Sequence record: KX828711
DNA: 64,000 nt
DNA from: Shigella phage SH7
Strand: one strand, 5' to 3'
The translations under genes and the position numbers were made by a program. The notes beneath the pieces are model-generated. The model was not told the DNA's origin and did not search any database. It worked only from the letters and a program-made list of their open reading frames with translations. This document shows, in pieces, positions 12,785-33,612 of this stretch; within the stretch, counting starts at the first letter, position 1, and each line of letters begins with the position of its first letter.

Positions 12785-12798
12785 AGCCATCCTTGGCT
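12785..12798 (-). repeat. palindromic CCATCCTTGG-core hairpin element
   Basis: AGCCA-TCCT-TGGCT; the same 10-nt core recurs at 16236, 33592 and in variant form at 13841. Confidence 0.5.
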
Positions 12799-12803
12799 TT
12801 AAA

Positions 12804-13805
12804 TTACTTAATTAACTGTAAAGCTTGTTCCAAACGATCAAGGCGATTAACAGATTCTTCCCAAATCCTTTTAGCCTGCTCATATTCTTTCTGCGCTTTA
12901 TTAGAAATTTCTAGAACTTCTTTATAAGCTTTTTCTAGTGCAATAACTTCTGGACGAATTTCTACCGGTTCAGGTGAATCGTCAAGATTATCCATTAGTT
13001 CTTCAAGGGTAGTTTCTTCTTTAGGAGTATTCACAATTTCATCACATTTTTGCTGGTAAATTTCTTTATCAGTCGGTGAGTACGCACACTTTACTTCACG
13101 AAGACTAATTATAATTTTATATCCTTCCCAACCGCATATATTCTTAAAAGGATATGTATGAATATTTTCTACTGTTTCCATACAAAGTAATGCGGTCTCT
13201 AATTGACGAGTTATAGTGCTAGCAATTGAGAAAAATTTATTAATGTTCTTTTGGTTAGTTTCTGGTGTAAAAAATCCATAATTCACAAAAATAGCTACTT
13301 TATTTTTATCAAGTTCATATTCTTTTATGATAATCATATCAGAAGCCAAAGGATGAATTTGACGATAATCGCCATAACATAATTTAGAAGCTGATTTTAG
13401 AATTTGTTTCTTAAAAAGTCTGAAATTACTAATCCAACGACGAGTAAAAATATTCTCAGGGTCTTCTTTATTATTAAGATGATAAGAATTAACATCACCG
13501 AACCAATTATATCCTACTACATCTTTGGTTCGTTTAATTTCTTTCCCAAAATTACCAAGAATATCCCGATTAACCAAATATGAAAGAAGACGAGACTCTT
13601 TAAAGGTTTTCTTGATAACATCTTTATCTACACGGCTAGAAATTTTACGAATTTCATGAATAAATTTAGTAGAAGAAACAATACTTGCATCAACACTATT
13701 GAGCCATTGATTGATAATAGAAAGAACGATATTTTGACCAAACATCGGTATAGCTTTATCATCAATAACGCTATTGAATGATTTGATATATTCGTTACGA
13801 GTCAT
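12804..13805 (-). CDS. coiled-coil-tailed protein, paralog family member 2
   Basis: 333 aa from the Met preceded by a GAGGAG RBS; the upstream ORF extension is translated promoter sequence; motif FRLFKKQILKSASKL. Confidence 0.65.
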   Translation of the reverse strand: MTRNEYIKSFNSVIDDKAIPMFGQNIVLSIINQWLNSVDASIVSSTKFIHEIRKISSRVDKDVIKKTFKESRLLSYLVNRDILGNFGKEIKRTKDVVGYNWFGDVNSYHLNNKEDPENIFTRRWISNFRLFKKQILKSASKLCYGDYRQIHPLASDMIIIKEYELDKNKVAIFVNYGFFTPETNQKNINKFFSIASTITRQLETALLCMETVENIHTYPFKNICGWEGYKIIISLREVKCAYSPTDKEIYQQKCDEIVNTPKEETTLEELMDNLDDSPEPVEIRPEVIALEKAYKEVLEISNKAQKEYEQAKRIWEESVNRLDRLEQALQLIK

Positions 13806-13833
13806 ATTAATCTCCTCAGTAGAAAGTAAGAAC

Positions 13834-13863
13834 ATTATACCACATCCTTGTGGCAAAGTAAAC
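13834..13863 (-). promoter_or_regulatory. early-type promoter (GTTTAC..TATAAT) with a hairpin in the spacer
   Basis: Reverse complement GTTTACtttgCCACAaggaTGTGGTATAAT, then GAGGAG and the ATG. Confidence 0.6.
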
Positions 13864-14885
13864 TAGTTCAGTGCATTTAGTGCATTGTTCAGTTTAGAAC
13901 GTTGCTTTGTCAGATTTTGAACCCTTGACTGAGCTTGTTCTAACACCTTTTCAGCTTCTAGCACTTCATTAGTTGCTTTAACGAGTTCATCATCTACTGC
14001 CTTGATAGACTTCTCAATCGCATCCGCGTGCCATTTTTCAACAGGTTTAAGACTCGGATTTTCAACAGGAAGAAAATTCGCTTTATTGAATTTCCATGCA
14101 TCCTTATTACCTGAACTATACATCCAAAATTTAGGATCGTTTGATGAGTAATTGGATAAATTTAAAATATCTTGCACTTCCTGCTTTTTCTCTTGCGGGA
14201 TTTCGTCCTTTCTCAAAAAATCGTATTTAAATGAAACGATCATATCAAGTTCATATGTTGTTGTGTCTAATTTAAATCGTTCGAAATGCTGTGAAATCTT
14301 AGACTGAACTGCAGCAACAACATCCATATACTTAAATGCTTCTGTCAACTGCGATTTAAGGCATTCACAAATTGAAAGAGAATTTTTTGTATTAGGTTTA
14401 AAGCTAATTCGTGCAGTTCTATTATTTTCTTTTAATGGTCTTACTTCCATCTGAAGAGTATAACCATCAAATTTCAGATTCTTTAAGTTAATATCAGAAC
14501 CTTTTAATCGACTAGCCGTCGACAAAATTTGCTTTAATTGTTTACGGAATAGAGCAATAAATCTCCATTCAATACGATAATGATTTGGATTGAAAAATCC
14601 AGATGATAAATCGACCTTACTCTGACCAACGCCTTGAACAAATAGAGGATTTTTATAATCAATAGTTTTACAGAAATCGGTGAGCTGTTCACGAGCAGTC
14701 ATTTGCGTAATATACCCCGCTTTACTAAAATGACGTAACCATTCACTGCTATTCAGATGTTTAAAGGCGTGAATGGAACAATTAACTTTACCAAGGTCTA
14801 AATTATTTTCGCACAAAAATGTCATAGCATCACGAGTATAGCTGGCATTACGAACCATATCTTCAATTTGAGAACGAGTTTTCAT
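13863..14885 (-). CDS. coiled-coil-tailed protein, paralog family member 3
   Basis: 340 aa; motif WRFIALFRKQLKQILSTASRL shared with member 2; C-terminal coiled coil. Confidence 0.65.
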   Translation of the reverse strand: MKTRSQIEDMVRNASYTRDAMTFLCENNLDLGKVNCSIHAFKHLNSSEWLRHFSKAGYITQMTAREQLTDFCKTIDYKNPLFVQGVGQSKVDLSSGFFNPNHYRIEWRFIALFRKQLKQILSTASRLKGSDINLKNLKFDGYTLQMEVRPLKENNRTARISFKPNTKNSLSICECLKSQLTEAFKYMDVVAAVQSKISQHFERFKLDTTTYELDMIVSFKYDFLRKDEIPQEKKQEVQDILNLSNYSSNDPKFWMYSSGNKDAWKFNKANFLPVENPSLKPVEKWHADAIEKSIKAVDDELVKATNEVLEAEKVLEQAQSRVQNLTKQRSKLNNALNALN

Positions 14886-14893
14886 AGTGTTCC

Positions 14894-15799
14894 TTAAGAT
14901 TTAAGTAAATCAACAATTTTAATTAATTTTTCACGCTCAGATTTAGCTTTACTACTCAGTCCAGATAGTCTGAAAATTTCATCATCATATTGTTGAATAG
15001 AAATATTCAGCTCTTCAATTTGCTTATTAAAATAATCAATTTGCTCAGAATGTTTTTCGTTACTACGAACTGGTACAGGTTTTGTAGGCAATTTAGTTGA
15101 ACTGGATTCATCCGGGCGATAAATTAAAATACAACTTGAACCAATAGGGCATTTTGCACCAGATGAATATTCTAATGTTCCGGCTTCTTTTAAAACTTCA
15201 AAAGCTAAACAGAGATGATGCCCCATATTAACATAATCTGTAGAGCGAGCTCTGATATAATAATCATCTCCACGAGTACTAAATTTAAAGCATTTAAGGT
15301 CTTCTGTATTATTGGTCTTAAAAATCATTTGTTTATCTAGACCTTTAGCTAATCGAGCGCCTAATGCTAATAATCGTCGTTGATTTTCCCACAAATCTGC
15401 GATCATTTGGTCAAATGATAATTTCGGCATTAGTCGGCCATAAAGGTCATATCCTTTATTATAATTACGAAGAATTTCACTCGCGTTAATACGAGACAAT
15501 GCTCCAATTTTATTAAGGGCTTTCATAATGCGATTAGATAAACTCATTCCAGACCCGTTTGTTCGCTGTAAATGTTTTTCTAATCCAAATCCAATATCAA
15601 CTTTAAATTTATCTAAAATTTCTGCATGAACATCTCTGTCAATAACATTCAAATCCAAAGTTGAGTTAAATCTATGAAAAAATTTATCTGGCTCTCCACG
15701 ACGAAATACAGTCCATTCATTCATCATTTTTTTATTAACTAAAGATTTAATTACTGCATTGACATTATTAATTACTACTGACATATTTTCCTCACTCAA
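14894..15799 (-). CDS. coiled-coil-tailed protein, paralog family member 4
   Basis: 301 aa; C-terminal coiled coil; weaker similarity to members 1-3. Confidence 0.6.
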   Translation of the reverse strand: MSEENMSVVINNVNAVIKSLVNKKMMNEWTVFRRGEPDKFFHRFNSTLDLNVIDRDVHAEILDKFKVDIGFGLEKHLQRTNGSGMSLSNRIMKALNKIGALSRINASEILRNYNKGYDLYGRLMPKLSFDQMIADLWENQRRLLALGARLAKGLDKQMIFKTNNTEDLKCFKFSTRGDDYYIRARSTDYVNMGHHLCLAFEVLKEAGTLEYSSGAKCPIGSSCILIYRPDESSSTKLPTKPVPVRSNEKHSEQIDYFNKQIEELNISIQQYDDEIFRLSGLSSKAKSEREKLIKIVDLLKS

Positions 15800-16200
15800 T
15801 TTTCAATTTTACTAAATACGCAGAATATGATGGAAAAGACTATATAAGCACCGCACACAGATTGAACTAATACCATTCCAAAGAACCAAACAATATTATC
15901 AAACAATGTCTGTTTTACGTCGAAAGGACGTAAACTTACAGTAATATTATCACCTTTTTCTATTGAAGAATACATCTCTGGGGAAATATATTCACTAAAT
16001 CTATAACCGTCTTTTAGTTCATATACGGCAATAAACGATAAACTAGACCCTTTTCCTTGTGTTCCCGTAATGGTATTAACTACAGTAACATCATAATCTT
16101 TATAATGCATATAATCATTAATTGCGTAATAACCATATGCAACTACTGCACATAAACAACATATCAATAAATTCAATCTTTTAATTACCAACTGTTTCAT
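15796..16200 (-). CDS. membrane protein (N- and C-terminal hydrophobic segments)
   Basis: 134 aa; hydrophobic N-terminus LLICCLCAVVAYGYYAI and C-terminal TM. Confidence 0.6.
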   Translation of the reverse strand: MKQLVIKRLNLLICCLCAVVAYGYYAINDYMHYKDYDVTVVNTITGTQGKGSSLSFIAVYELKDGYRFSEYISPEMYSSIEKGDNITVSLRPFDVKQTLFDNIVWFFGMVLVQSVCGAYIVFSIIFCVFSKIEN

Positions 16201-16255
16201 AATAATCTCAATTAAAAGGGCTTAGAACCATTATACCATCCTTGGTATAAAGCGG

Positions 16256-16783
16256 TTATGCGAGTACCGTCTTTAACCGTTCTTCAAACTTCCGAAGAGT
16301 ATTCTGGCGTTCAGCTCTTTGCTTTTTGTAAGTTTCAATACGCTCTGAAATGAGAGTGTATCGTTCATTTACTGATTCTTTCATAAAATCAGGAATTTCA
16401 CGAGAAGCTTTAATCTCATCAAATTTATCAATAACAGCTTGCTCTTCAGCAATTAAGTTATCATACATCAAAATATCTTTCTTGATGAACTCAATATCTT
16501 CTTGAGTTACACGAGATAATTTAGATGCTTTATCCTTTTTGTACTGTTCGTTAGTATCACGAGACCAGTGTAATGTACGATTTTTATTCGTATTCTTATA
16601 AATTTCTACAATACCAATCTCATCAATAATAACGATCCAATTCCAACGGGATTTGTAAATTTGTCCTCCATCAACAGTGATTTCACCTCCGATTGAGATG
16701 TCATTAAAGAACTTGCTTTGTGCTTCAGATTTAAATTTACCATCGTTGTAATTTACCAGGTTGAAAATATCTTTAGCGTTCAT
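16256..16783 (-). CDS. hypothetical coiled-coil protein
   Basis: 175 aa from MNAKDIF; GGAGG RBS; the ORF N-terminal extension (GTIQLSTT) is translated promoter sequence. Confidence 0.6.
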   Translation of the reverse strand: MNAKDIFNLVNYNDGKFKSEAQSKFFNDISIGGEITVDGGQIYKSRWNWIVIIDEIGIVEIYKNTNKNRTLHWSRDTNEQYKKDKASKLSRVTQEDIEFIKKDILMYDNLIAEEQAVIDKFDEIKASREIPDFMKESVNERYTLISERIETYKKQRAERQNTLRKFEERLKTVLA

Positions 16784-16811
16784 TTTGTGTTCCTCCGTAG
16801 TTGATAGTTGT

Positions 16812-16841
16812 ATAGTACCACAGAGGAACGGTCTTGTAAAC
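16812..16841 (-). promoter_or_regulatory. early-type promoter (GTTTACA..17 nt..TACTAT)
   Basis: Reverse complement GTTTACAagaccgttcctctgtggTACTAT upstream of the 16256-16783 gene. Confidence 0.6.
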
Positions 16842-16843
16842 AA

Positions 16844-17158
16844 CTAAAAGAAACTTCTTTCACAATTTTTTCCACTGAACCACGCACTCACTGCTTTCTT
16901 AGTCTCAGGAGCAGTGTTATCCATAAACCATTCAAAGGCAGCCTTTTTATGATTCTGGAGGGCTTCTCGGGCTTTAATCTGCTCACGGTCTATTAACACT
17001 AACATATGAGCCTTTCTTGTCACCAGGGGCTTCTTATGATTTTTTGAATACTCCCAATCATTTGTCCATCGCATCGTTGTTGCGAATTGAAGTACAGCTT
17101 CCTTAATCTTAGTTTCGTAAATTTCACGAGCCTTTGAGTATAACATCACTACCTCCAT
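16844..17158 (-). CDS. hypothetical protein
   Basis: 104-aa ORF between the ATPase gene and the downstream promoter. Confidence 0.5.
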   Translation of the reverse strand: MEVVMLYSKAREIYETKIKEAVLQFATTMRWTNDWEYSKNHKKPLVTRKAHMLVLIDREQIKAREALQNHKKAAFEWFMDNTAPETKKAVSAWFSGKNCERSFF

Positions 17159-17247
17159 TTACCAGTTTAATTCTAATCATCTTTTTGATGGCAGTCCATA
17201 TAATCTATTTCTGAACTGCCTTTTTGTCATAGAAGGCCTCTTATGAA

Positions 17248-18216
17248 TTATTTCAGAAGAGTAACCTCAGCAATTTCTTCCCAACCGTTTTTGTCGGTCA
17301 TAATAAAGTCAGCAAGATAAAGTGCAGTACGCAGTGAAACATTGCGTAAACGATTAACATTAACTTTCATCCATGATAATGCTTTATAAGTTTCTTCATC
17401 AGAAAGACCACGTTTTTGCATCATGTCAGTTGAAAGAATAACATCTTCAACCCTGACCATAATTTCTTCATTAGTGTGAACACCCAAATCTAAATAAACT
17501 GAGCGGGACACTAATGCTTGTAAATGTGGAGCAAGTTTAGTACCACGGTCTAATTCGCGGTCAATGTCAACGTTTGTGATAAAAACAATCGTTCCTTTAA
17601 ATTCAAACTCACGCTCAATGCCTTTTTCTTCTAAGTAAGAAGATGCGGTGCTCCAGCAGACTTTACGGGTCTCTCCAGTGTCCAGAGCAGCTTTCAGAAG
17701 ATTAAGAATGTCCATATCAGAGAAAACATCCACATCATCAATCAAAAGGACAGAATTCTCTTCACGATTATTCCAAAGCTGTTCATAAAGACCGATACCA
17801 GAGATTTTACCATTAATGCTTTTATACTCAATGTATCCAATATCATTTGCTTTATTTAAAGCTTTATCTAAAGAATACGTTTTACCAATACCTGCTGCTC
17901 CCGAGATAATTAATGAACGAATGTTTCCGTTAATAATACCATTCGTCATCATTCCCATAACATTAAATCTTTTATTAATGCGGGTTTTCATATCTTCATA
18001 CGATTCTTTAACTTCTTCAACTTTTACACCATCATATGAAATGTCTGATTTGTAAACCCAAACACCGCGACGTTTACCGTCAATTTCAACAAAAACTTTA
18101 CCATCTCCTTGTGCATCTACCGGAGCATTATCTGGGAACCATTCGCCTAAGAGCTCAAAAGTTCCAGAGATTTCTTTACCGAAGTAGATACCCTTATTGA
18201 TAGTTACAGTTTTCAT
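17248..18216 (-). CDS. P-loop (AAA+-like) ATPase
   Basis: 322 aa; Walker A GAAGIGKT, Walker B VLLIDDVD, sensor-like IVFITN. Confidence 0.7.
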   Translation of the reverse strand: MKTVTINKGIYFGKEISGTFELLGEWFPDNAPVDAQGDGKVFVEIDGKRRGVWVYKSDISYDGVKVEEVKESYEDMKTRINKRFNVMGMMTNGIINGNIRSLIISGAAGIGKTYSLDKALNKANDIGYIEYKSINGKISGIGLYEQLWNNREENSVLLIDDVDVFSDMDILNLLKAALDTGETRKVCWSTASSYLEEKGIEREFEFKGTIVFITNVDIDRELDRGTKLAPHLQALVSRSVYLDLGVHTNEEIMVRVEDVILSTDMMQKRGLSDEETYKALSWMKVNVNRLRNVSLRTALYLADFIMTDKNGWEEIAEVTLLK

Positions 18217-18243
18217 TTTATTCTCCTTTGATTTGATAGGACT

Positions 18244-18273
18244 ACTATAACATAGTCCTATCAGTTTGTATAC
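18244..18273 (-). promoter_or_regulatory. early-type promoter with -10 inside a 9-bp inverted repeat
   Basis: Reverse complement GTATAC..18 nt..TATAGT; arms GATAGGACT/AGTCCTATC (18236-18262) bracket the -10. Confidence 0.45.
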
Positions 18274-18474
18274 TTATTTTGACATTTCTTCGATGTCACG
18301 ACGATACCCGTCACGAACTTCACGAAGAGCTTCAAGGCCACACATAGGCTCGATACCTGTAATGTGAACTTGATTAATCTGATACTCTACATCTTCTAAC
18401 TGAGCGAAAACATAACGACGTTCAGCTGCACAACCAGATTTAGCTTTACCGAAACGTTTATTCAAAGTAGTCAT
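18274..18474 (-). CDS. hypothetical small protein
   Basis: 66-aa ORF preceded by an early-type promoter. Confidence 0.45.
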   Translation of the reverse strand: MTTLNKRFGKAKSGCAAERRYVFAQLEDVEYQINQVHITGIEPMCGLEALREVRDGYRRDIEEMSK

Positions 18475-18512
18475 TTTGTATCTCCAATTTACTCATTTGT
18501 TTTGATAGGTCT

Positions 18513-18542
18513 ATAGTATCAACAACTACAGACCATGTAAAC
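18513..18542 (-). promoter_or_regulatory. early-type promoter (GTTTAC..TACTAT)
   Basis: Reverse complement GTTTAC..18 nt..TACTAT, immediately downstream of the 18573-18590 terminator. Confidence 0.55.
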
Positions 18543-18572
18543 CGTTTTGTGAAAAATTTTTGAAATAAAAAA

Positions 18573-18590
18573 GGGAGCCCGAAGGCTCCC
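18573..18590 (-). terminator. rho-independent terminator with UUCG tetraloop
   Basis: GGGAGCC-CGAA-GGCTCCC flanked by an A-run; on the minus strand a hairpin followed by UUUUUUAUUU. Confidence 0.75.
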
Positions 18591-18592
18591 TA

Positions 18593-19606
18593 TCATTTAT
18601 AATAACTTCGATGGTTTTCAAGATAGACCTTCTCAAGGAAGTCATCCCAAAAACCCATGTCCACTTTTTGCTGCATACCGTTCTTAGAAGCTTCAGTAGA
18701 TGCTGCTTCTACTTGATCGACCACATCTTCCAAAAACTCTTGAACGGTTTTAAATGGATGTTTACCCAACTTCACGTCGAGAATAAATGGAGCATCTTGG
18801 AGTGGATAAACCAAGTCACCAGTTTTGTAAATTTCCAATAGTTGAAGTCCACCACGACAGGCATGGCTCAGAGCTTTCCAGTCAATGCCTTCGTTGGCTT
18901 CGGCCTTACGAGCACGTTCACCATATTCAGCATCTAATTTGTTCAGTGACTGCTTAAGCTCAATAAGAGAAAGCGTTGTCTGATATTTACGACCCAACAC
19001 AGTGTAAAACGTTTGTGGGCCTGTTTTCTCATGATTATGGAACACCCATTCACAGAATTCGTTTTCTGGAAGACGATGCTTAATATCTTCAACTTTGGTG
19101 TGACGCTGCTTAATAGAACCATCTTCTTGGTAATCAATCCACTGCTCAGGGATTTGATTAACTATTTTCAATACATCGCGTAATGCAGCCAAACGAGAAC
19201 CCTTGACACCGTATTTAGAAGCTTGCTTGCGAACATATCCTAAATAGGATTTCATGTTAGTCGTATAAAAACGAGAACGGTTGTCTTGAATAAACTTCCA
19301 CACATCAGGCAAATCAGATTTAACCACTAGTTCAGGTGGAGTGTGAAGCATATCCAATGCTACAGTTTCACCATCTGCTGCTAATTTAAAGAAATATTTA
19401 AGACTGTATAGTTCATGGTCAATATCATCTTTAGTGTTTTTAGATGATGTGTTGTTAGTGTTTTTACTCATGTGCTCTTTAACATTTCCAATAAGAATAT
19501 CACGAGCAGGAGGAACAAAAATTTCTTTAAAATCTACATCAGATTCTGGGGTAGAAGTTCCATAAAGATGACTACCAAAATAGCTTTTCATTACTGTTTT
19601 CATCAT
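18593..19606 (-). CDS. Pol-beta-superfamily nucleotidyltransferase-like protein
   Basis: 337 aa; N-terminal hG[GS]..(10)..DhD signature FGSHLYGTSTPESDVDF; substrate unknown. Confidence 0.6.
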   Translation of the reverse strand: MMKTVMKSYFGSHLYGTSTPESDVDFKEIFVPPARDILIGNVKEHMSKNTNNTSSKNTKDDIDHELYSLKYFFKLAADGETVALDMLHTPPELVVKSDLPDVWKFIQDNRSRFYTTNMKSYLGYVRKQASKYGVKGSRLAALRDVLKIVNQIPEQWIDYQEDGSIKQRHTKVEDIKHRLPENEFCEWVFHNHEKTGPQTFYTVLGRKYQTTLSLIELKQSLNKLDAEYGERARKAEANEGIDWKALSHACRGGLQLLEIYKTGDLVYPLQDAPFILDVKLGKHPFKTVQEFLEDVVDQVEAASTEASKNGMQQKVDMGFWDDFLEKVYLENHRSYYK

Positions 19607-20064
19607 TCAGCCTTATATTCAATAACAGGACATACTTTAGCTTTACGAGATTTTAAAAATTCAACGATAATCGATTTCTTGGGTTGAATAGGAGGTAAAC
19701 CTTTATACGCTCTATCAATATTTTCTACGTGTAAAGCATAATCCTTTTTCCATTTATAATCTTTATATTTTTCACGCAAATGTGCAGGAATAACAAATGA
19801 ACCGATAATAAGTAAAACAACCAAAAGCGCAAGTATAAATGCTGATGGAAGCAAAGTCCATAAACTACCAAAAATAAGCCAACGTTGTAGGCTTTCTGCA
19901 CAAATAATTGTTAGCCCTACGAGTATAGCACATCCAAAAATAGAAACGAAAAATGTAGGAATGGCAATAGACCAAAAATATGCGCATAGTGTCTTAGGTC
20001 GTTGCCATTCATCGTTAAACAATTTGAATAATTTATAGTGCCAAGAGTTTTCATTAATAATCAT
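19603..20064 (-). CDS. membrane protein (2-3 TM)
   Basis: 153 aa with long hydrophobic segments; 4-nt overlap with the nucleotidyltransferase gene start. Confidence 0.6.
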   Translation of the reverse strand: MIINENSWHYKLFKLFNDEWQRPKTLCAYFWSIAIPTFFVSIFGCAILVGLTIICAESLQRWLIFGSLWTLLPSAFILALLVVLLIIGSFVIPAHLREKYKDYKWKKDYALHVENIDRAYKGLPPIQPKKSIIVEFLKSRKAKVCPVIEYKAE

Positions 20065-20066
20065 AA

Positions 20067-20588
20067 TTATCCTTTCATTGAAGGCGTAACAGTTGTTAAA
20101 TACTTAATCATAGCTTCAGCTTCTGATTTTGATAATGAAATTTCTCCATTGTTTTGACGAATAGAAATAAAATCCGGATGACGGTCACCACCAGCTTTTA
20201 AAACACACATATAAGTATCAACTTCATCTTCAATATTTGAAATGATTGAAGCAGTTCCACATGAATGCGGTTTTTGATAAATCAATGCAGCTTTTCTTCC
20301 GCCATTTGACTGTTCATAAACTTTTAATACATCAAACAAATCACTTCTTTTATCAATAGCTAAAATGTTATTTTCATCTTCAATGTTAAATCCTTCGGAT
20401 ACTTCATAAAGTGTCACCCATAAATCGCCAATATCAATAACAGCGTTCACTTTTCCATGACTTTCAAGAGCATGACAAATTTTCTTGATTTCGTCATAAC
20501 TCATTTTAATAATATCATCTCCTTGAATAAGAAAGATGTCATTTTTAAATTCAACACGAATTAAACCACTTCCACTTGAAATAAACAT
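20067..20588 (-). CDS. hypothetical protein, tandem paralog A
   Basis: 173 aa; shares GFNIE and C-terminal KxYLxxVxPxM blocks with the next gene. Confidence 0.6.
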   Translation of the reverse strand: MFISSGSGLIRVEFKNDIFLIQGDDIIKMSYDEIKKICHALESHGKVNAVIDIGDLWVTLYEVSEGFNIEDENNILAIDKRSDLFDVLKVYEQSNGGRKAALIYQKPHSCGTASIISNIEDEVDTYMCVLKAGGDRHPDFISIRQNNGEISLSKSEAEAMIKYLTTVTPSMKG

Positions 20589-20594
20589 ATTTCC

Positions 20595-21140
20595 TCACTT
20601 TGAAATCATAGTTGGAATGACAGAATCAAGATAAGTCTTTAGTGCAATAGCTTCGTCTTTGGTAAATGTGACAATATGTGCTCGAAAATCATCAATTTGA
20701 CGAATAGTTAAGACATCTCCATCTTCATAACATTTTGATACGTTTAAAACAGTTTCATCATTCTGATCGCAAGCGTTAGTAATAATAGCATTGCAATTTT
20801 TAAACCATTTTAAACTATGTTTTCTTTCATTAGAATAATAAAAATATTTAATCTTATCTATAAAACTATCCCAATGGATAACTGATAAGCATATTGACTC
20901 GCTTTCAATATTAAATCCTGGGCATGAAGAATAAAAATGAATTTTATGCTCATCATTAATGCTTACAATTTTATCAGTATAAGGATTTTCAATTTTGGTT
21001 AAATGAATGATTTCACTAGGCGTAAAATACAGCATATCGTCTTCTTGTGTCAAACGATACATATTATTTACTTTTTCTATAGCCAATTCACCAAAAAGTG
21101 AACTAACTTCTAATACTAATCGTTTCGCCGCTACCGTCAT
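20595..21140 (-). CDS. hypothetical protein, tandem paralog B
   Basis: 181 aa; paralog of 20067-20588. Confidence 0.6.
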   Translation of the reverse strand: MTVAAKRLVLEVSSLFGELAIEKVNNMYRLTQEDDMLYFTPSEIIHLTKIENPYTDKIVSINDEHKIHFYSSCPGFNIESESICLSVIHWDSFIDKIKYFYYSNERKHSLKWFKNCNAIITNACDQNDETVLNVSKCYEDGDVLTIRQIDDFRAHIVTFTKDEAIALKTYLDSVIPTMISK

Positions 21141-21662: not shown

Positions 21663-21664
21663 AC

Positions 21665-22056: not shown

Positions 22057-22084
22057 GATGTTCTCCTCTTTATCCGATAGTTGT

Positions 22085-22146: not shown

Positions 22147-22151
22147 TAATG

Positions 22152-25095: not shown

Positions 25096-25439
25096 CTAGT
25101 ACTCAATCCTCGATTATAAGAATCTACCAAACGGTCAACCATTGAATGACAAGCGGCTTTATCTTTCTCCTCCGCAACTGAACATTCTAAGGTATTCCAC
25201 TTTTTAGCATATCGTTTTAATAATGTATCGTTTTTGTATCTACTTGATTTATCTCTTTCTCCGTCTTTATATGCATATATTAATTTCTGTGCAAATTCAG
25301 CTTGACATGCTTTATTTTTCCCACAATAATCTGCCGCAGTGCGGTTTACATATTCTCTAATTTCAGTATATGATGTATCTGCTGATGCAGAAGCAGAAAA
25401 TGAAATTAATCCTATACATAAAACCAAAATTTTAGTCAT
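25092..25439 (-). CDS. secreted small protein (signal peptide)
   Basis: 115 aa; N-terminal signal peptide ending ASASA; 4 Cys. Confidence 0.6.
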   Translation of the reverse strand: MTKILVLCIGLISFSASASADTSYTEIREYVNRTAADYCGKNKACQAEFAQKLIYAYKDGERDKSSRYKNDTLLKRYAKKWNTLECSVAEEKDKAACHSMVDRLVDSYNRGLSTR

Positions 25440-25977
25440 TTACTATTTCCAAAAGTTTATTATTTTTAAGGTAATTAGCCTTTTCTAGGACTTCAGAAGC
25501 ATATTTAGAACCAGCTTTAACATTCCATCCCGAATTATAAGAGGATATTGCTTTTCTTATATCGCCCTTATGTATATTTAACCAATAAGAAAGTTCAATG
25601 TACGCCCAGGAAGCTGAATTGGATCGTTTATTCAACATTCTTTTTATTTCAGCATCGGTCATATTATAACCAAGTTCCTTAACTCTTGCTCGCATAGTAG
25701 GCAAATAATTTTGGAACATTCCGTAGGCGTGATGCTTTGGTTTAGATTTTAAATTAACTCCGCCAGAGCTTTCTTGCCATAAAATAGCAGCCATTATATG
25801 ACCTAATCCGCTCTTGTGGATATTTTTGTGTGTTTTATATTTTCCATCCTTAGAAAATTGTTCCCCGAATTGATACGCGTAACGCATGTTATCGAGTTGG
25901 ACATTACTGAAAGTATGCTCGGAGCTATGTGCCATCATTGAAATGGCCAATAGACCAGCGAGTAGTGCTTTTCTCAT
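25432..25977 (-). CDS. secreted lytic transglycosylase-like protein (SLT domain)
   Basis: 181 aa; signal peptide; family-1 motifs E-S (ILWQESSG), GMFQ, YNSG. Confidence 0.7.
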   Translation of the reverse strand: MRKALLAGLLAISMMAHSSEHTFSNVQLDNMRYAYQFGEQFSKDGKYKTHKNIHKSGLGHIMAAILWQESSGGVNLKSKPKHHAYGMFQNYLPTMRARVKELGYNMTDAEIKRMLNKRSNSASWAYIELSYWLNIHKGDIRKAISSYNSGWNVKAGSKYASEVLEKANYLKNNKLLEIVND

Positions 25978-25984
25978 GCTTACC

Positions 25985-26446
25985 TCATTGAGTTTTAATT
26001 ACTGCTTTAGAAGCCTTTCCTGGTAAACGACGACTGTTGATAATTGCCATCCTACATTGAAGTGACGGGTCTTTGAACTTCTCGTTAGGTTTACAAACTG
26101 TAAATCCAAGCCAAAGATTTCCATCTGTGATTTCTAAACGTCCAGGACGATATTCAACCCCATCAATAAAATCCTCGTCAATGTCAGGACGCGGAGGCAT
26201 TCTCAGGAATTCATTAACTTCTAAAACATGGTCTTTTATTTTATGGAATAATTCAAAAACGTATGTCTCATCAATCTCCCGTTGAATTGCACGATCAAGA
26301 AGATGTTGAGAATATTTTAGATGAAACGATGAGACCCCTGCTGCTTTTGATGCCTCACGAATCTCATTGTTAATTTGACGAAACTCCGACTCAAAGTGAC
26401 GACGAAGCTTATTTCGACGGATAAAAACTTCAGTGTTGATAGTCAT
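25985..26446 (-). CDS. regB: RegB site-specific endoribonuclease
   Basis: 153 aa; size and position match T4 RegB; sequence agrees with recollection. Confidence 0.8.
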   Translation of the reverse strand: MTINTEVFIRRNKLRRHFESEFRQINNEIREASKAAGVSSFHLKYSQHLLDRAIQREIDETYVFELFHKIKDHVLEVNEFLRMPPRPDIDEDFIDGVEYRPGRLEITDGNLWLGFTVCKPNEKFKDPSLQCRMAIINSRRLPGKASKAVIKTQ

Positions 26447-26473
26447 GTTATTCTCCTCTTAACTGATAGAAAA

Positions 26474-26503
26474 ATTATACCACAGTCAAGAGGAAAAGTA
26501 AAC
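26474..26503 (-). promoter_or_regulatory. early-type promoter (GTTTAC..TATAAT)
   Basis: Reverse complement GTTTACttttcctcttgactgtggTATAAT upstream of regB. Confidence 0.55.
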
Positions 26504-26505
26504 AG

Positions 26506-26784
26506 TTATTCTTTAAATCTAATCAATTTATTCATAGACTTTGAAACTTCGGCACGAACCTCATGTAGATTTTTGAGCTGTTCAAGACGCTGCGTATAGT
26601 AAGCAATTTCATCTTCTTCGAGACAGTCCTGCGAATCTTCTTTAAGATAACGTGCATAGTCCTGGAAAGCGTTACGGATTACTTCCTGGAAGTCATCAAG
26701 ACTTTGAATTTTCTTAGGAGCAGCAGATACACGACGAGGGGCAGTATAATACTCATAACCAAACCCTGCGCTTAATTGAGCCAT
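26506..26784 (-). CDS. hypothetical protein
   Basis: 92 aa from the Met whose ATG overlaps the upstream stop (TAATG). Confidence 0.5.
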
Positions 26785-27050
26785 TAGTATTTTTCCTCTG
26801 GTTGGAACACTGCACGACAAGCCCACATACTGGCTTCTTTGAGTTTCGTTTTAGCAATAGTTAACTGATCGAGGCTTTCAGCATAATTCTTCGCGAATTC
26901 ACAGTCTTCACAATTATCTAGTGCTTCCCAGAATTCATCGTATAAAGCGTCAAAGATAAGTCCTAAACGAACTTCAGCGTCTTTGATAGCATTCACTTTA
27001 CCGATTTTCTCTTCAGTATGTGGCTTATAACCCTTAATGTCTTCAATCAT
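26784..27050 (-). CDS. small acidic helical protein; possible Vs.4/Acb2-position protein
   Basis: 88 aa from the Met with GAGGAAG RBS; second gene upstream of regB, where T4 vs.4 lies; assignment by synteny only. Confidence 0.4.
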
Positions 27051-27264
27051 ATTTAACTTCCTCACCAGTACATAAATCATATTCAACTAAACGAATAGGT
27101 TCATGAATGCCATATCCCTGAACAGAAATTTCTGTCGTAGGATAAATTCCACTAATATCACCCATATTCCACGCTTCATTAAATTGCTGTTCGCCTGAAT
27201 TACTAAACCATTCTGCGAAAGCATTTAGCACATCTTTAGAACCTTCAATAATTATCTTTGCCAT
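27043..27264 (-). CDS. hypothetical small protein
   Basis: 73-aa ORF; start overlaps the upstream stop. Confidence 0.5.
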   Translation of the reverse strand: MAKIIIEGSKDVLNAFAEWFSNSGEQQFNEAWNMGDISGIYPTTEISVQGYGIHEPIRLVEYDLCTGEEVKYD

Positions 27265-27626
27265 TACAGACTCTCAGTAAAGGTACGAGCGATAACGTCG
27301 CGCTGCTGTTCCGGAGTCAGAGAGTTAAAGCGAACTGCATAACCGGATACACGGATGGTCAGCTGCGGATATTTTTCCGGATGCTTAACTGCATCTTCCA
27401 GAGTTTCACGACGCAGAACGTTAACGTTCAGGTGTTGACCACCTTCAATTTTAACTGTAGGTTGTGTTTCAATTTCAATTTCACGGGCGTGCAAACCATA
27501 GAAAATTTCTGGGTCTACAAAAGAGTCCTCTTTAAAGGTTTTAGAGACAATAATTCGCGCTTGAATACCATCTTCAAAATAAATAGTACCTTTATGCGTG
27601 CCTTCAAGAATTTGATATGCTTTCAT
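27264..27626 (-). CDS. autonomous glycyl-radical cofactor (GrcA/YfiD-like spare-part protein)
   Basis: 120 aa; C-terminal glycyl-radical fingerprint [17 protein letters not shown]. Confidence 0.8.
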
Positions 27627-27633
27627 ATAAACC

Positions 27634-27963
27634 TCAATTAGAAAATAAATTTATCCAAGATTGTTCTTTAATTAAAAATGGCTCAGAATCATATGCCATT
27701 AAACTTTGCGTAATTAATCCTTTAAAAGGTCCATCAATAAATTCCATGGTAAAATATGGAATTTTATTCATTAGCCGTGCATTAGGAGCCGTGCACAAAA
27801 CTCTGCATCCTTTGAATACGCCTTTTTGTAATTTGTATTGCTTAGGATAAAATTCACTTAAAATGTTATTTTTTGCCAAAATTTCAAAATGATTCACCAA
27901 TTTATTTTTAATAGTTTTTGGTGAAAAATAAAGATATTCAAAAAGTTGCGCATCTGTCATCAT
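27634..27963 (-). CDS. hypothetical protein
   Basis: Start at internal Met pair with ATGA overlap to the upstream stop. Confidence 0.5.
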
Positions 27964-28499
27964 TGCATTCCGATTACGAAAAACTGTGGACGAGTAATAC
28001 CACCAATACAACATTTAATATTACAGCAGCAGTGTACAGTGTCAATATGGACGCTATAAATCTTATCCATATCAGGAGATTTGACAGGCTCATCAATTAT
28101 ATACAAAATTCGCGAAAGCGATAAACCTCTGAACTTGCTTCCTTTATTACCAATAAAACTGCGCACAGAATCAGTAAATAAACGAAAACGTATATCATCA
28201 TTAGAATAACGCGAAAATTCCTTTTTAATGTTATTTGCAGAAATTTTAGCGTAAGCTGAAGTATTAGAAAGAACAATAACTGTTCCGCCATCATACAGCC
28301 AATTAGCAGCAAAGTTAGTCACAGCAATTGATTTACCGGATTGACGTCCACCATCTAGTCGAAGTGTGCAATACTGTTTAAGTAATTCTTCAAATGGCGG
28401 AATATATTCGTTTTTACAAATTTCTTCTACTCTAGCATCAGAATGGTGTGTAAAAGCATTCATCAGGGATAGATAAGGACCAGTTAAAAATGTTCTCAT
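27960..28499 (-). CDS. small P-loop NTPase with Cys-rich C-terminus
   Basis: 179 aa; Walker A GGRQSGKS, Walker B ILYIIDEP, C-terminal HCCCNIKCC. Confidence 0.55.
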   Translation of the reverse strand: MRTFLTGPYLSLMNAFTHHSDARVEEICKNEYIPPFEELLKQYCTLRLDGGRQSGKSIAVTNFAANWLYDGGTVIVLSNTSAYAKISANNIKKEFSRYSNDDIRFRLFTDSVRSFIGNKGSKFRGLSLSRILYIIDEPVKSPDMDKIYSVHIDTVHCCCNIKCCIGGITRPQFFVIGMQ

Positions 28500-28639
28500 T
28501 TCTTCTCTCTAAGTTTGGGCCATTCCGTGGCGCATGAATTGTCCATTTCTGTATTTACCCATTACCGCGCTTGGGCTCGACCTTATTACAGGTTGGCGGG
28601 AATCCCTCATAGAATCATGAGGTCCAGGTTGTTCCCATA

Positions 28640-29113
28640 TTATTTGAACGATTTAACGTACTGAATAGAACCTTTACTATTCACAAAGGCAATTTTACCA
28701 TTTTTGTTATACATAGTAGCAGTACGTTGATAGCCATAAGTTTGTTTACCAGATTGATAACCAACTAATGCGAAATTATCTTCACCCATTTTATTCTGTT
28801 TAGCGCGAATGCGTTCATGACCATGTGCCATAAGAACCTTAGCATCACCGGTTGCAATGGATCGACGAGTTTTTTCATCTTCAACTGTATTAACAAAGTC
28901 GTCAAATGAATCAAATTTAGCATGAGATTTATTATACAGTTTTCCATCTACTGCATAATTATATCCCTGTACATCCATCTCAACTTCTGTACCATCATCC
29001 AGTACAGCAGTGATTTTCTGTCCTTTTTTAAATTTCAAAAGATCAGTAAAAGATTCAGCAATAATTTGAGAATTAATAGCTGCTTCAGTAATAAATTCTT
29101 GATAGGTTTTCAT
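28640..29113 (-). CDS. internal head protein (capsid-targeting-sequence protein), IP locus
   Basis: 157 aa; N-terminal MKTYQEFITEA matches the T4 IP capsid-targeting sequence with an LxE protease site. Confidence 0.7.
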   Translation of the reverse strand: MKTYQEFITEAAINSQIIAESFTDLLKFKKGQKITAVLDDGTEVEMDVQGYNYAVDGKLYNKSHAKFDSFDDFVNTVEDEKTRRSIATGDAKVLMAHGHERIRAKQNKMGEDNFALVGYQSGKQTYGYQRTATMYNKNGKIAFVNSKGSIQYVKSFK

Positions 29114-29129
29114 GTGTTTCCTTTAATTT

Positions 29130-29447
29130 TTATTCTTTAGGGAAGTTTTTAGAATATGCATCATAAAGCTTATTTCCAATACGGCGGAAAACTCTAGCCG
29201 CAAAACGATTTTCTGGGTTTTTAATCATGATTTGCATCATATAAGTACCCGCGTCAGAAAGAGCTTCTTCATAGTACCCGTTAATTTCTTTAAGAGTCCT
29301 ACGTTTACCACCAGGACCATCAACAGTGATTTTCCATTTACCTGTAGAAGTGCGACTTGGCGGCTCAACTTGTTCAATCCAGATATAACCGCCTTCTACA
29401 CGTTGTCCTGCAGCAGATTCTGCAATAAATTCTTGATAGGTTTTCAT
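29130..29447 (-). CDS. internal head protein (capsid-targeting-sequence protein), IP locus
   Basis: 105 aa; N-terminal MKTYQEFIAES capsid-targeting sequence; between the IP gene and lysozyme e. Confidence 0.7.
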   Translation of the reverse strand: MKTYQEFIAESAAGQRVEGGYIWIEQVEPPSRTSTGKWKITVDGPGGKRRTLKEINGYYEEALSDAGTYMMQIMIKNPENRFAARVFRRIGNKLYDAYSKNFPKE

Positions 29448-29501
29448 GTGTTTCCTTTAAATATTTTAATTAGTAATTTATCTATTCAAGTAACTGTGAA
29501 T

Positions 29502-29531
29502 ATACTATCACAATTCCAAGAGAAAGTAAAC
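29502..29531 (-). promoter_or_regulatory. early-type promoter (GTTTAC..TAGTAT)
   Basis: Reverse complement GTTTAC..18 nt..TAGTAT upstream of the IP genes. Confidence 0.5.
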
Positions 29532-29535
29532 AGCT

Positions 29536-30504
<969 letters not shown>

Positions 30505-30508
<4 letters not shown>

Positions 30509-30993
30509 TTTAATTTCCTGCATTCAGTGATAAAGTTATTTAAATTTTGAGTATATTTCTTTTCATCAAAAATCTTTTGTTGTCTGCGTAGCCGCCATGG
30601 CATTTCAATGAACGTGTACCATATCCCAGATAATATTGCTGCTGTAAAAATATTAACAAGTATGGTTAAAAGAATCCAATCTCCTATTCTGTCCATTGGA
30701 TTTTTTATAAAAAAGTAAAATACGAATGATGTCACAGGAAGACTAATAATATACCACAGAATCATAATTTTATCTGTGAACCAATCAGCGTTCGTTAACT
30801 TAGCGCGACCATTATGAATACACACGAATTTATCATCTGTTATAATAGATGGCTTAGCTGCTTGATATCCCATTCTAAACTCCCTAATCAACAAATTTTT
30901 CATATCTTCGGAACAACCATTCCAGTCAACTCTATCAACTGAAATGCCATCATCCCCATCATCTAAATCATACCAGCGAGTTTTTAAAATCAT
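30505..30993 (-). CDS. membrane protein, junction-motif family member
   Basis: 162 aa; two C-terminal TM segments; ends FITECRKLK. Confidence 0.6.
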
Positions 30994-31352
30994 TTAATTT
31001 TCCTACAATCACTCACAAACTCTTCCATTGATTCTTTTTCAATATAAGACATGTAGCTATTATATTCTTTTAATTGTATTTTGTAATCTTTTTTTCTTTG
31101 CCAATTTATTTTAAAATTATCATAATGAAAATATAACATAGTACCAAAGAATGAAAATAATGAAATAATTTTAGTATAGTGAAGTTCACTCCAAACTTCT
31201 ATTATATCTACTGTGCCGTCAATGTTTAAAATAAGACAGTCAATTAACAATCCAAAAAGACTACCCGCAAGAGCTGCTGCCAACGCCACAGCAAAAATTA
31301 AAAATGACTCAGGAAGCGAATATTTGACTTTATTTAGTTTTGGCTTTTGCAT
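30990..31352 (-). CDS. membrane protein, junction-motif family member
   Basis: 120 aa; N-terminal TM; ends FVSDCRKIK. Confidence 0.6.
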   Translation of the reverse strand: MQKPKLNKVKYSLPESFLIFAVALAAALAGSLFGLLIDCLILNIDGTVDIIEVWSELHYTKIISLFSFFGTMLYFHYDNFKINWQRKKDYKIQLKEYNSYMSYIEKESMEEFVSDCRKIK

Positions 31353-31726
31353 CGTGATTCCTTAACAAATTTCATAATTTCATCAAATTCATACGCAGCA
31401 AGTTTAAGCTGATGTTCCCTTTTAATCTTTTTACACTGTGCTTTCCAATCACGTACGCGTTTACGATAATGTCTTCCTTGATACCAGTATCCTACCCAAT
31501 TTACAGGTACTAATAAAAGTGGAACTATTAATGGAAGAATTAGCATTAACACAAGTATTTCGCCAGAATCAATATCAGTCATAACATCTAAAACACCTCC
31601 AATAATCAATAGAATTACAAATGATATGAGTATAACAGGACCTATTAATACATCAGTAGAAATTAGCTGGCGCTTTAATTCATACTTTAAGGGTTTACTT
31701 GGAAGGTATAGTGATGGCTTTGACAT
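31334..31726 (-). CDS. membrane protein, junction-motif family member
   Basis: Start at MSKPSLY (second ATG, better RBS); TM-rich; ends FVKESRCK. Confidence 0.55.
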   Translation of the reverse strand: MSKPSLYLPSKPLKYELKRQLISTDVLIGPVILISFVILLIIGGVLDVMTDIDSGEILVLMLILPLIVPLLLVPVNWVGYWYQGRHYRKRVRDWKAQCKKIKREHQLKLAAYEFDEIMKFVKESRCKSQN

Positions 31727-32309
31727 ATTCTCTACATTCCTTAACAAATTTTTCTAATAATAAATCGCTTTCAAAATTGGGATTTTCTACGAATTTATCA
31801 AAAAGATCATCAACAATAGTTAAGATATTCTTTTTACTAAGAATACGTTTATTTTCATGCTTCGTTTCAGAATCAACTATAAGAGTAAAGAAATATTTCT
31901 TGCCCTGAAATTTTACAGTAGTATCAATATAGAATAAATTTGATTTTTGTAAATTACGTTTAAACCATGCATCACTTAAACTATAAACGCCAAGATAATC
32001 ATAATCGTCGTTTAAATAACAGACCGTCCATTCAGGAGAAACAAAATCAGTAAATTCAACGTCAAAATCGCATGTTAATAAATGAATTGATTCAATACTG
32101 TTAATAAGTATTCCAGGACGTATTAAAGATTTTTTACCTCTAGAAAATCTTCCAGAAAGACTTTCATCAGTTTCATATGAAGAACCCCAATAATAATTAC
32201 GTCCTTCTGCCATACGTTTAAGAGCATTTAATAATTGGTCTGGAACATCAACCTGTCTTTGGAACTCTTCAAACATTGAATTGAAATCACTTTGCATTTT
32301 CATTTTCAT
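31695..32309 (-). CDS. hypothetical protein, junction-motif family member
   Basis: 204 aa; ends FVKECREY; GGAG RBS; preceded by a terminator hairpin. Confidence 0.6.
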   Translation of the reverse strand: MKMKMQSDFNSMFEEFQRQVDVPDQLLNALKRMAEGRNYYWGSSYETDESLSGRFSRGKKSLIRPGILINSIESIHLLTCDFDVEFTDFVSPEWTVCYLNDDYDYLGVYSLSDAWFKRNLQKSNLFYIDTTVKFQGKKYFFTLIVDSETKHENKRILSKKNILTIVDDLFDKFVENPNFESDLLLEKFVKECREYVKAITIPSK

Positions 32310-32330
32310 TCCTATTTACTCCAAGTAATA

Positions 32331-32344
32331 GGGGCCGAAGCCCC
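32331..32344 (-). terminator. UUCG-tetraloop hairpin (terminator or stabiliser)
   Basis: GGGGC-CGAA-GCCCC between the 32351 stop and the 32309 start. Confidence 0.55.
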
Positions 32345-32350
32345 TTATCA

Positions 32351-32944
32351 TTATTTCAGAGAATTAATGTATTCCTGAACATCAGCAGAGGTAGTTTCAA
32401 CCCCAGAAATATTACCGTTAAAGGTTTCAACTCGAGCAAGAGTATCTTCAATATCAACCTTAGTCAGTGCTGCAATTTCAACTACATCATCAGCAGTACT
32501 AATTCCGAGGGCATTCGCGGCGCGAGTTTCACGGATATATTCCAATTTAACTGCAAGTTCTTGGCGAGCATCATCTAACTCAACTACTTTCTTGGCGATT
32601 TCAATTCGCATTTCAGCATAACCATCAGCTTTAGTAGTTAACTGCTCAGCTGTTCGACGATATAGTAAACCGAGTTTAGCATGCATTGTTACATCTTGAC
32701 CTTCGGAAAGAAGCTTGCGAATTTCACGCTCTTTTGATTCGGCCTGTCGATTCTTTTCGACAATAAGTTCACGAATACGCTTTTCTTCATTAATAGATTT
32801 AACAGAAGCAGTTTTTAGATCTTTAATCTTATCAAGTAGTTTTGCTGCCGCAGCAGTATACTGTTCTTCAACAGATAGATTTTTAGCCATAGCAGAACCA
32901 AGTTTAGTGCGAATAAACTCAACAATTTTCTTCAGTGTGTTCAT
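32351..32944 (-). CDS. coiled-coil protein
   Basis: 197 aa, largely helical/charged; no enzymatic motif. Confidence 0.6.
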
Positions 32945-33001
32945 AGTATTTCCTTAGGTTGGTATAATTAGATAATATCACGTTTCTAATAGATTGTAAA
33001 C

Positions 33002-33337
33002 TTATTCTTCGTCTAGCTCGTCGATAAAGGCGTCGATGGCCTCGACAACGGCATCATTGATAGCCAATAAAATAAAATCATCGTCAGTACCTTTAGAAGA
33101 TTCTAAAGCATTGATATATGCTTGGTTGGCGAGTTCCCAAGCCTTTTTAAAATAAGGAGCTTCATCATCGGGGCCAACGAAACGCACGCCTTCAAAGATA
33201 CGGTTAGCATAATCCAATACCCACTGTACAGGCATGTTTTGAGAACGTTCGTTAAACTCTTTAAATTCCTTAGATTCAAAAAGCTCTTCAGGATAATCAT
33301 TTCTATTACAAAAAGCTTTACTAAAGTTACGTTTCAT
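33002..33337 (-). CDS. hypothetical acidic protein
   Basis: 111-aa ORF with an early promoter upstream. Confidence 0.55.
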   Translation of the reverse strand: MKRNFSKAFCNRNDYPEELFESKEFKEFNERSQNMPVQWVLDYANRIFEGVRFVGPDDEAPYFKKAWELANQAYINALESSKGTDDDFILLAINDAVVEAIDAFIDELDEE

Positions 33338-33363
33338 AATGTTTTCCTTGTGATGATAAGTCT

Positions 33364-33393
33364 ATAGTAACGCCTTCATACTTAGATGTAAAC
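33364..33393 (-). promoter_or_regulatory. early-type promoter (GTTTACA..TACTAT)
   Basis: Reverse complement GTTTACAtctaagtatgaaggcgtTACTAT. Confidence 0.55.
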
Positions 33394-33546
33394 TATTTCA
33401 ACATCGCCTTTTGCTGCTTTATAACCTTCAGCCCAAGATACAACCGAGTTTTTATCTGAAGATTCAAATTCTGGCATTGGGCTTTCGCCAATGTTCACGC
33501 AGTATGTTTCTTCATTTTCGTCGAACCAAATAATTAAAGTAGTCAT
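33379..33546 (-). CDS. hypothetical small protein (55 aa)
   Basis: Manual translation MTTLIIWFDENEETYC..; not in the track (below 60 aa). Confidence 0.35.
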
Positions 33547-33582
33547 TTATTTCTCCGTTTCTGTATTTGTTTTGATAAGTCT

Positions 33583-33612
33583 ATAATAACACCATCCTTG
33601 GTGTTTGTACAC
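33583..33612 (-). promoter_or_regulatory. early-type promoter with CCATCCTTGG hairpin in the spacer
   Basis: Reverse complement GTGTACaaaCACCAaggaTGGTGtTATTAT. Confidence 0.5.

Follow-up and report, generated by a model that had tools for sequence, protein, structure and literature searches.

Hairpins with a fixed AGGA loop in promoter spacers of Shigella phage SH7 and related T-even-type phages, with CsrA as a candidate binding factor

In T4-type phages, the cassettes known as PeSL consist of a promoter with a stem-loop between its -35 and -10 elements; typically, they are followed by a Shine-Dalgarno sequence and a start codon, are repeated at unrelated loci, and flank insertions or deletions (indels) of ORFans, while the PmSL cassettes represent their middle-promoter version (Arbiol 2010, PMC2839356; Comeau 2014, PMC4122927). 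Terminator activity has been published for the PeSLs of RB49/phi1 (PMC2839356, PMC4122927). Among RNA-level regulators, CsrA is a homodimer with two RNA-binding surfaces (PMC2896534) and a high-affinity consensus, RUACARGGAUGU, in which GGA is presented in the hairpin loop of short variable stems and both ACA and GGA are invariant according to SELEX (PMC4347634, PMC2896534). In the case of ColE7, CsrA binds both the intercistronic T1 stem-loop, at its loop, and the Shine-Dalgarno sequence of the downstream cel gene (PMC2896534), and the RNA CsrB has been reported to be stabilised in T4 infection (PMC9697503). Here, we analysed a stretch of 64,000 nucleotides of Shigella phage SH7 (sequence record KX828711), hereafter the window, in which a short hairpin with an AGGA loop recurs in the spacers of intergenic promoters. 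The window belongs to Tequatrovirus, with approximately 97% identity to vB_Eco_NR1, and matches T4 at roughly 37-101 kb. Its hairpin cassettes are members of the known PeSL/PmSL kind, and they are distinguished by a loop that stays fixed while the stem co-varies.

Recurrence, geometry, and promoter context of the hairpins

The first-pass annotation had reported a 10-nt palindromic core recurring in early promoter spacers and had suggested that this was not due to chance. The recurrence is confirmed, as CCATCCTTGG has three exact plus-strand matches, at 12787, 16236, and 33592, compared with an expected count of 0.05, and three copies were reached in 0 of 100 dinucleotide-preserving shuffles. 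Regarding its structure, the sequence is an interrupted inverted repeat, CCA-AGGA-TGG, and not a true palindrome. The genes around the sites are oriented on the minus strand, as indicated by GC skew and open reading frames (ORFs), and on this coding strand the three exact copies and a fourth, variant site all form perfect hairpins with an AGGA loop and stems of 5-8 bp, in agreement with the hairpin proposed before:

12785-12798, minus strand: hairpin AGCCA-AGGA-TGGCT upstream of nrdC.3; 5-bp stem; identical in T4 at 49893-49906
13840-13853, minus strand: hairpin CCACA-AGGA-TGTGG in front of nrdC.4; 5-bp stem, extending to 7 bp with one G·U at 13838-13855
16231-16250, minus strand: hairpin TTATACCA-AGGA-TGGTATAA upstream of nrdC.7; 8-bp stem
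33588-33605, minus strand: hairpin AACACCA-AGGA-TGGTGTT in front of a 54-aa ORF; 7-bp stem

The 5-bp stem previously described at 16233-16246 is the inner part of the 8-bp hairpin upstream of nrdC.7. All four sites are intergenic, lie between genes of the same strand, and have a Shine-Dalgarno sequence and a start codon downstream; those of nrdC.3, nrdC.4, and nrdC.7 all exist in T4. The nrdC.3 hairpin lies 5 nt past the nrdC.4 stop codon, the nrdC.7 hairpin begins 6 nt past the nrdC.8 stop codon, and the nrdC.4 hairpin holds ACAAGGAUGU. The promoters around them are as follows:

12774-12803, minus strand: decayed class A promoter around the nrdC.3 hairpin; TTTAAA at 12803-12798, N18, TATAAA at 12779-12774
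13834-13862, minus strand: T4-type early promoter of nrdC.4; TTTACT-N17-TATAAT with a TGn element; 100% identity to T4
16223-16253, minus strand: MotA-dependent middle promoter PnrdC.7; MotA box GCTTTA at 16253-16248, 12-bp spacer, TATAAT at 16235-16230
33583-33611, minus strand: promoter of the 54-aa ORF; TGTACA-N17-TATTAT, with the hairpin filling the spacer
33364-33546, minus strand: the 54-aa ORF (33382-33546) and the next promoter (TTTACA...TACTAT, 33392-33364), a cassette that T4 lacks between e.8 and e.7

The placement in promoter spacers was borne out at every site, the nrdC.3 promoter being degenerate, while the assignment to early promoters holds in part. The nrdC.4 hairpin occupies the spacer of an early promoter, and the promoter of the 54-aa ORF, in the e.8 region, is probably of the early type and shows the usual T4 early sequence downstream of its -10 element. 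In contrast, the promoter upstream of nrdC.7 is the MotA-dependent middle promoter PnrdC.7 and not an early promoter. Its sequence is identical in T4, where the start mapped at 53325 (Hinton 2010, PMC2988021, Table 1) falls exactly 7 nt past the -10 element, and the corresponding start in the window would be at 16223. The fourth promoter, that of nrdC.3, has decayed. Its 18-nt spacer includes CGGAG (GGAG at 12783-12780) and aligns with a layout found in other genera, TTTACA-hairpin-nGGAG-TATAAT (class A), and every Tequatrovirus copy has the degenerate hexamers TTTAAA and TATAAA around a hairpin that is still perfect, which suggests that the hairpin is kept independently of promoter function.

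The features that define PeSL cassettes are therefore recognisable in the window, namely promoters with correct spacing (early-type at nrdC.4 and the 54-aa ORF, with a MotA box at nrdC.7, and degenerate at nrdC.3), perfect stem-loops of 5-8 bp within their spacers, and an association with indels and ORFans. Regarding the latter, the 54-aa ORF is absent in T4 and was inserted, relative to that phage, between e.8 and e.7, so its flanking hairpin fits the PeSL indel model. The two promoters flanking this ORF have TATAGACTTATCA in common, and the ORF cassette was present in approximately 188 phage records, T2 and RB3 among them. NrdC.3 and NrdC.4 (11825-13805, minus strand) are distant paralogues, with 24% identity over 270 aa (E 6e-8), yet the hairpin loops upstream of their genes are identical. 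Additionally, the TATAATG following the nrdC.7 hairpin opens a mini-ORF of seven codons, MVLSPFN* (16203-16232, minus strand), which stops 5 nt before the nrdC.7 start codon, inside the Shine-Dalgarno region of that gene, and the ATG of the TATAATG following the nrdC.4 hairpin is in frame with nrdC.4, 10 codons upstream (13803-13835, minus strand). At both sites, the loop AAGGA lies 7-9 nt ahead of the ATG; the mini-ORF and the in-frame extension were judged coincidental.

The pattern CA-N-GGA-N-G in hairpins was found nowhere else in the window. A covariance model built from the family gave a single extra match, weak and intragenic, at 25837-25860 on the minus strand (17.5 bits, E 0.12), where UUUUCUAAGGAUGGAAAA within a vs.1-like ORF forms an AGGA loop on a 7-bp stem with one G·U and may be a chance match. 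An Rfam scan of the window returned tRNAs only, so no known RNA family was found at the motif sites. When tetraloops were ranked genome-wide, AGGA was not outstanding, with four in the window against about one expected and four in T4; since this count is modest, the signal lies in location and covariation. The most over-represented tetraloop of perfect hairpins was UUCG (20 versus 2.3 expected in T4 and 6 versus 0.8 in the window), corresponding to the classical T4 C(UUCG)G hairpin. Likewise, a general excess of hairpins with stems of at least 5 bp at the T4-type promoters of the window was discarded as not significant (8 of 16, against 43% of random 45-mers), and hairpins of at least 7 bp (3 of 16, against 4%) were only suggestive. 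Because promoter-wide enrichment is weak in the window, the case rests on the recurrence and covariation of the AGGA-loop family.

Covariation of the stem and conservation of the loop across phages

Judged by sequence, the hairpin family is conserved across at least five Tevenvirinae genera and in uncultured phages. T4 has a fourth copy at 2433-2450, between gene 60 and rIIA.1, and its denB promoter contains a related hairpin, CCAC-AAGGACC-GTGG. At orthologous or paralogous sites, the loop is kept and the stems differ, being CUUCCA/UGGAGG with one G·U pair in Gaprivervirus, CAUCC/GGAUG in Dhakavirus, CAACCA/UGGUUG and ACCC/GGGU in Mosigvirus, and CCACA/UGUGG in Jiaodavirus, where the hairpin lies upstream of cef, another gene context. 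Other copies are alike over longer segments. For instance, the 30-bp cassette at T4 50972 (nrdC.4) recurs in nearly identical form at T4 2457, between gene 60 and rIIA.1, and in Klebsiella phage PKO111, where it precedes cef, and the PnrdC.7 promoter is identical over its full length in three genera. The search for relatives of NrdC.4 yielded five loci only.

In an alignment of 19 distinct hairpins in which pairs were counted, 85% of the cells were paired, compared with 61% in shuffles, none of the 500 of which attained this value, and the covariation score was 0.609 versus 0.157, with slid controls at or below 0.213. One stem position shows AU, CG, UA, and GC pairs, and the internal non-Watson-Crick pairs comprise five G·U and no A·C. 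The invariant columns read CAAGGA.G, corresponding to CAAGGA(U/C)G for the loop with its closing pairs, the AGGA loop is always on the sense strand, and between 0 and 10 bp separate the core from the -10 element.

The outer pairing was also examined in IMG/VR, scanned with the pattern CCAAGGAYGG-N0-10-TATAAT, which does not select for it. Among the 22 distinct matches in promoter context, 21 had a stem extension of 1 bp or more, which measured 2 bp or more in 13 of them, whereas 61 of the 90 matches outside promoter context had no extension, which is near random. The locus L049, an 8.4-kb part of a 363-kb uncultured viral contig, contains dense, near-identical TTGACA...TATAAT cassettes with aatagttaTTGACA...cgtcaacaaaca, several of which bear GGA-loop hairpins in the spacer; no nucleotide match to L049 was found in the phage collection, and a further locus, L101, gave no useful match.

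Taken together, the covariation of the stem, the tolerance of G·U without A·C, the fixed strand of the loop, and the variable distance to the -10 element favour folding within the sense strand, most likely as RNA, over an operator in duplex DNA or a fixed RNA polymerase contact. The hairpin is accepted as a genuine element that is under selection. Since the stem is free to change as long as it pairs while CAAGGA[U/C]G is fixed, recognition by a trans-acting factor is implied.

CsrA as the candidate factor and the competing explanations

Given that the invariant CAAGGA(U/C)G resembles its high-affinity consensus, host CsrA is the best candidate for the factor that would bind the loop. At all four sites of the window, a short hairpin presents GGA in its loop and fits CA-N-GGA-N-G, and the nrdC.4 site matches RUACARGGAUGU at 10 of 12 positions, ACA and GGA included. 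E. coli CsrB, which was read and folded, contains GUCAAGGAUGAGC, ACACCAGGAUGGUGU, and CUCCAGGAUGGAG; the 54-aa ORF site, with ACACCAAGGAUGGUGU, resembles the CsrB repeat ACACCAGGAUGGUGU, and the invariant loop 8-mer CAAGGAUG is present exactly in CsrB. A second GGA site for CsrA is typically 10-60 nt away and is usually the Shine-Dalgarno sequence. In the phage cassettes, 27-41 nt separate the loop GGA from the Shine-Dalgarno sequence downstream, which contains GGA itself at the 54-aa ORF, at nrdC.4, and in most other genera. Furthermore, two uncultured contigs found through the motif have, in the spacers of other promoters, hairpins with CAGGGAUG, CAUGGACG, and CACGGAUG; as N varies and GGA stays in these hairpins, CsrA fits better than mimicry of a Shine-Dalgarno sequence.

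The intergenic regions measure 50-70 bp and the spacer is nearly their sole unconstrained sequence, which accounts for a PeSL-type arrangement. Being located upstream of the local start, the hairpin is carried only by transcripts that read through from the upstream gene and is absent from those of the embedded promoter. It would fold in the sense-strand read-through RNA, where CsrA, anchored to the hairpin as a dimer, could extend to the Shine-Dalgarno sequence downstream, as in glgC and ColE7 cei-cel. As a consequence, translation might be repressed, the stability of the read-through message might be altered, or CsrA might be titrated. An intercistronic hairpin restricted to read-through RNA and probably bound by CsrA is the best explanation that we can offer, and we put it forward tentatively. 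The dimeric regulator invoked by the first-pass annotation may accordingly have a part here, as an RNA-binding protein for which CsrA is the candidate.

Several observations weigh against this explanation. At three of the four window sites (nrdC.3, nrdC.7, and the 54-aa ORF), CCA replaces the ACA of the SELEX consensus, and the Shine-Dalgarno sequences of nrdC.3 and nrdC.7 lack GGA; with two of four lacking it, bridging by CsrA cannot be general. Locally, the hairpins are weak, with energies of about -4 to -8 kcal/mol, and folding of 44-51 nt windows gave z-scores from +0.05 to -1.8. Many of the aligned copies are related by descent, and three of them (nrdC.4, T4 2457, and L130C) joined the covariation alignment after inspection. 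When applied to the CsrB repeats, the phage covariance model gave weak scores of 5-8 bits (E about 1). In a control that ranked the loop triplets of CA-N-xyz-N-G hairpins across the fetched loci (1.19 Mb), a noisy sample of mostly unrelated coding DNA, GGA was not outstanding. Finally, the motif recognised by CsrA is short and similar to a Shine-Dalgarno sequence, and our literature search returned no paper linking CsrA to T4 RNA.

The strongest competitor, which we regard as a real possibility and yet doubt, is an ordinary PeSL stem-loop acting on the upstream transcript as an attenuator, weak terminator, or 3'-end stabiliser and as a homology patch for the shuffling of cassettes, with loop identity derived from descent or gene conversion among promoter cassettes and no factor specific to the loop. 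The architecture and the terminator activity published for RB49/phi1 agree with this account, as do the indel adjoining the hairpin of the 54-aa ORF, the near-identical 30-bp cassettes described above, and the fact that T4 early promoters in general form near-identical families. A GC-rich stem followed directly by a U-tract, as expected of an intrinsic terminator, was recognised by a simple scan at nrdC.4 only, which makes this one site terminator-like. At nrdC.3 and in the class A copies, the stem is followed by GGAGUAUAA, which provides GGAG and no U-tract, and the stems are short. Descent or gene conversion would also have to account for a loop that stays the same in different genera despite the divergence of stems and flanks and that precedes paralogues with 24% identity, and hairpins with stems of at least 5 bp are no commoner at the window promoters than in random 45-mers.

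We consider it improbable that the loop acts as a Shine-Dalgarno mimic offering a standby site to the 30S subunit, or as a target or decoy of RegB, with a cut at the class A GGAG by which the hairpin would become a protective 3' end. AAGGA can pair with the anti-Shine-Dalgarno sequence, to which it is complementary, although the variant loops AGGGA, AUGGA, and ACGGA of related promoter hairpins pair poorly with that sequence, and 33-51 nt separate the loop from the start codon. RegB recognises GGA (PMC1702504), and GGAGUAUAA(A/U), located after the stem in class A and at nrdC.3, is close to GGAGRAYARAA; however, classes B, C, and D have no GGAG past the stem, and among 30 intergenic GGAU sequences of T4 that were tested, RegB cuts only those of 55.2 and motB.2 (PMC1702504). 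The loop GGAU lies inside a structure, and a RegB target was rejected on these published cleavage data.

An element acting as double-stranded DNA, either as the operator of a dimeric regulator that binds DNA or as a feature of the spacer that tunes RNA polymerase, as the first-pass annotation had suggested, appears quite improbable. The inverted-repeat symmetry, the constant location within promoters, the TGn extended -10 element provided by the 3' arm at nrdC.4, nrdC.7, and the 54-aa ORF, and the identity of the entire PnrdC.7 promoter in three genera would suit it. An operator should nevertheless show a conserved half-site at a fixed promoter position, whereas the outer positions of the half-sites show covariation, G·T is tolerated without A·C, and the orientation of the loop is fixed. 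With respect to the -10 and -35 elements, the register moves by up to 10 bp, which also fits poorly with a feature acting on RNA polymerase, the motif occurs in early, middle, and decayed promoters alike, and the class A copies have no TGn overlap. Lastly, inverted repeats without selected function, arising by chance from promoter elements or kept by template-switch (quasipalindrome) mutation, whose templated correction is known in T4, are very improbable given a recurrence far above chance and a loop whose sequence and strand are invariant across genera, even if the 8-bp stem at nrdC.7 is partly made of the end of the MotA box and the -10 element.

Comparison with described systems

T4 early and middle transcription is a textbook system, and the element described here bears on the role of its promoter stem-loops, on the fate of read-through (delayed early) RNA, and on a possible contribution of host post-transcriptional regulators. 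The hairpin family described here, defined by a fixed CsrA-type loop and co-varying stems, leads to a concrete hypothesis about CsrA and suggests a design principle by which a promoter spacer encodes an RNA signal that marks read-through transcripts only. More broadly, it is conceivable, if rather doubtful, that T-even-type phages and some unrelated uncultured phages place putative high-affinity CsrA hairpins in promoter spacers, thereby producing two classes of mRNA per gene, with and without the CsrA site, and that CsrA, or a phage protein recognising GGA loops, controls the translation or stability of early genes differentially or is titrated by abundant early RNA. Should CsrA not bind, a well-defined sub-family of PeSL cassettes would remain. 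Elsewhere in the window, a cluster of 11 tRNA genes was located at 35339-36357 on the minus strand, compared with 8 annotated in T4.

When compared to the PeSL and PmSL cassettes, the hairpins share the intergenic promoter with a stem-loop in the spacer or over the -10 element, upstream of a Shine-Dalgarno sequence and start codon, as well as the presence of copies at unrelated loci and beside ORFan indels and the existence of a middle-promoter form. The RB49 cassettes (115000-164018) differ in what is conserved. Their spacers bear the palindrome GGGGATC-N3-5-GATCCCC, with two GATC sites and variable loops, for example, at record positions 117409, 121736, 122881, 123294, and 158969, whereas the T-even hairpins have short variable stems and a fixed loop; this reversal points towards recognition of the loop. 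GGA loops as a general PeSL feature were ruled out by the RB49 cassettes. Another difference is that one T-even copy, that of nrdC.3, persists in a decayed promoter. The 2014 paper places the stem-loops of PST/T4 upstream of the promoter and does not describe the loop motif (PMC4122927). A further PeSL class in the window consists of longer inverted repeats across the -10 element, which lies in the loop (e.g., TGATGAG...CTCATCA and ATAGGGT...ACCCTAT), at minus-strand promoters starting at 37737, 37369, 33392, 33000, 29530, and 18541; T4 shows the same at ipII, ipIII, and cd.3.

Promoter-coupled bacterial terminators (Fletcher et al., bioRxiv 2026, 10.64898/2026.08.19.745784) are similar in that the stem-loop of the upstream transcript overlaps the next promoter. 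In those terminators, the stem-loop DNA supplies the -35 element and the T-tract fills the spacer, whereas the phage hairpins sit inside the spacer, are weak, and have no T-tract. The promoter upstream of nrdC.7 corresponds to PnrdC.7 in its MotA box, 12-bp spacer, TATAAT, and T4 start, while the hairpin and its conserved loop lie outside the definition of a middle promoter. Regarding the CsrA sites of CsrB, the glgC leader, and ColE7 T1, the likeness consists of a short hairpin that is closed by CA/UG pairs and has GGA in its loop and, with ColE7 cei-cel, of an intercistronic stem-loop ahead of a Shine-Dalgarno sequence in which GGA is often present. Most CsrB repeats have a loop that is one A shorter than the phage loop, and, in contrast to the described CsrA sites, the phage hairpin is embedded in a promoter and hence present on read-through RNA only. 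What is new here is a loop-conserved, CsrA-like variant of the PeSL cassettes, which had not been described previously.

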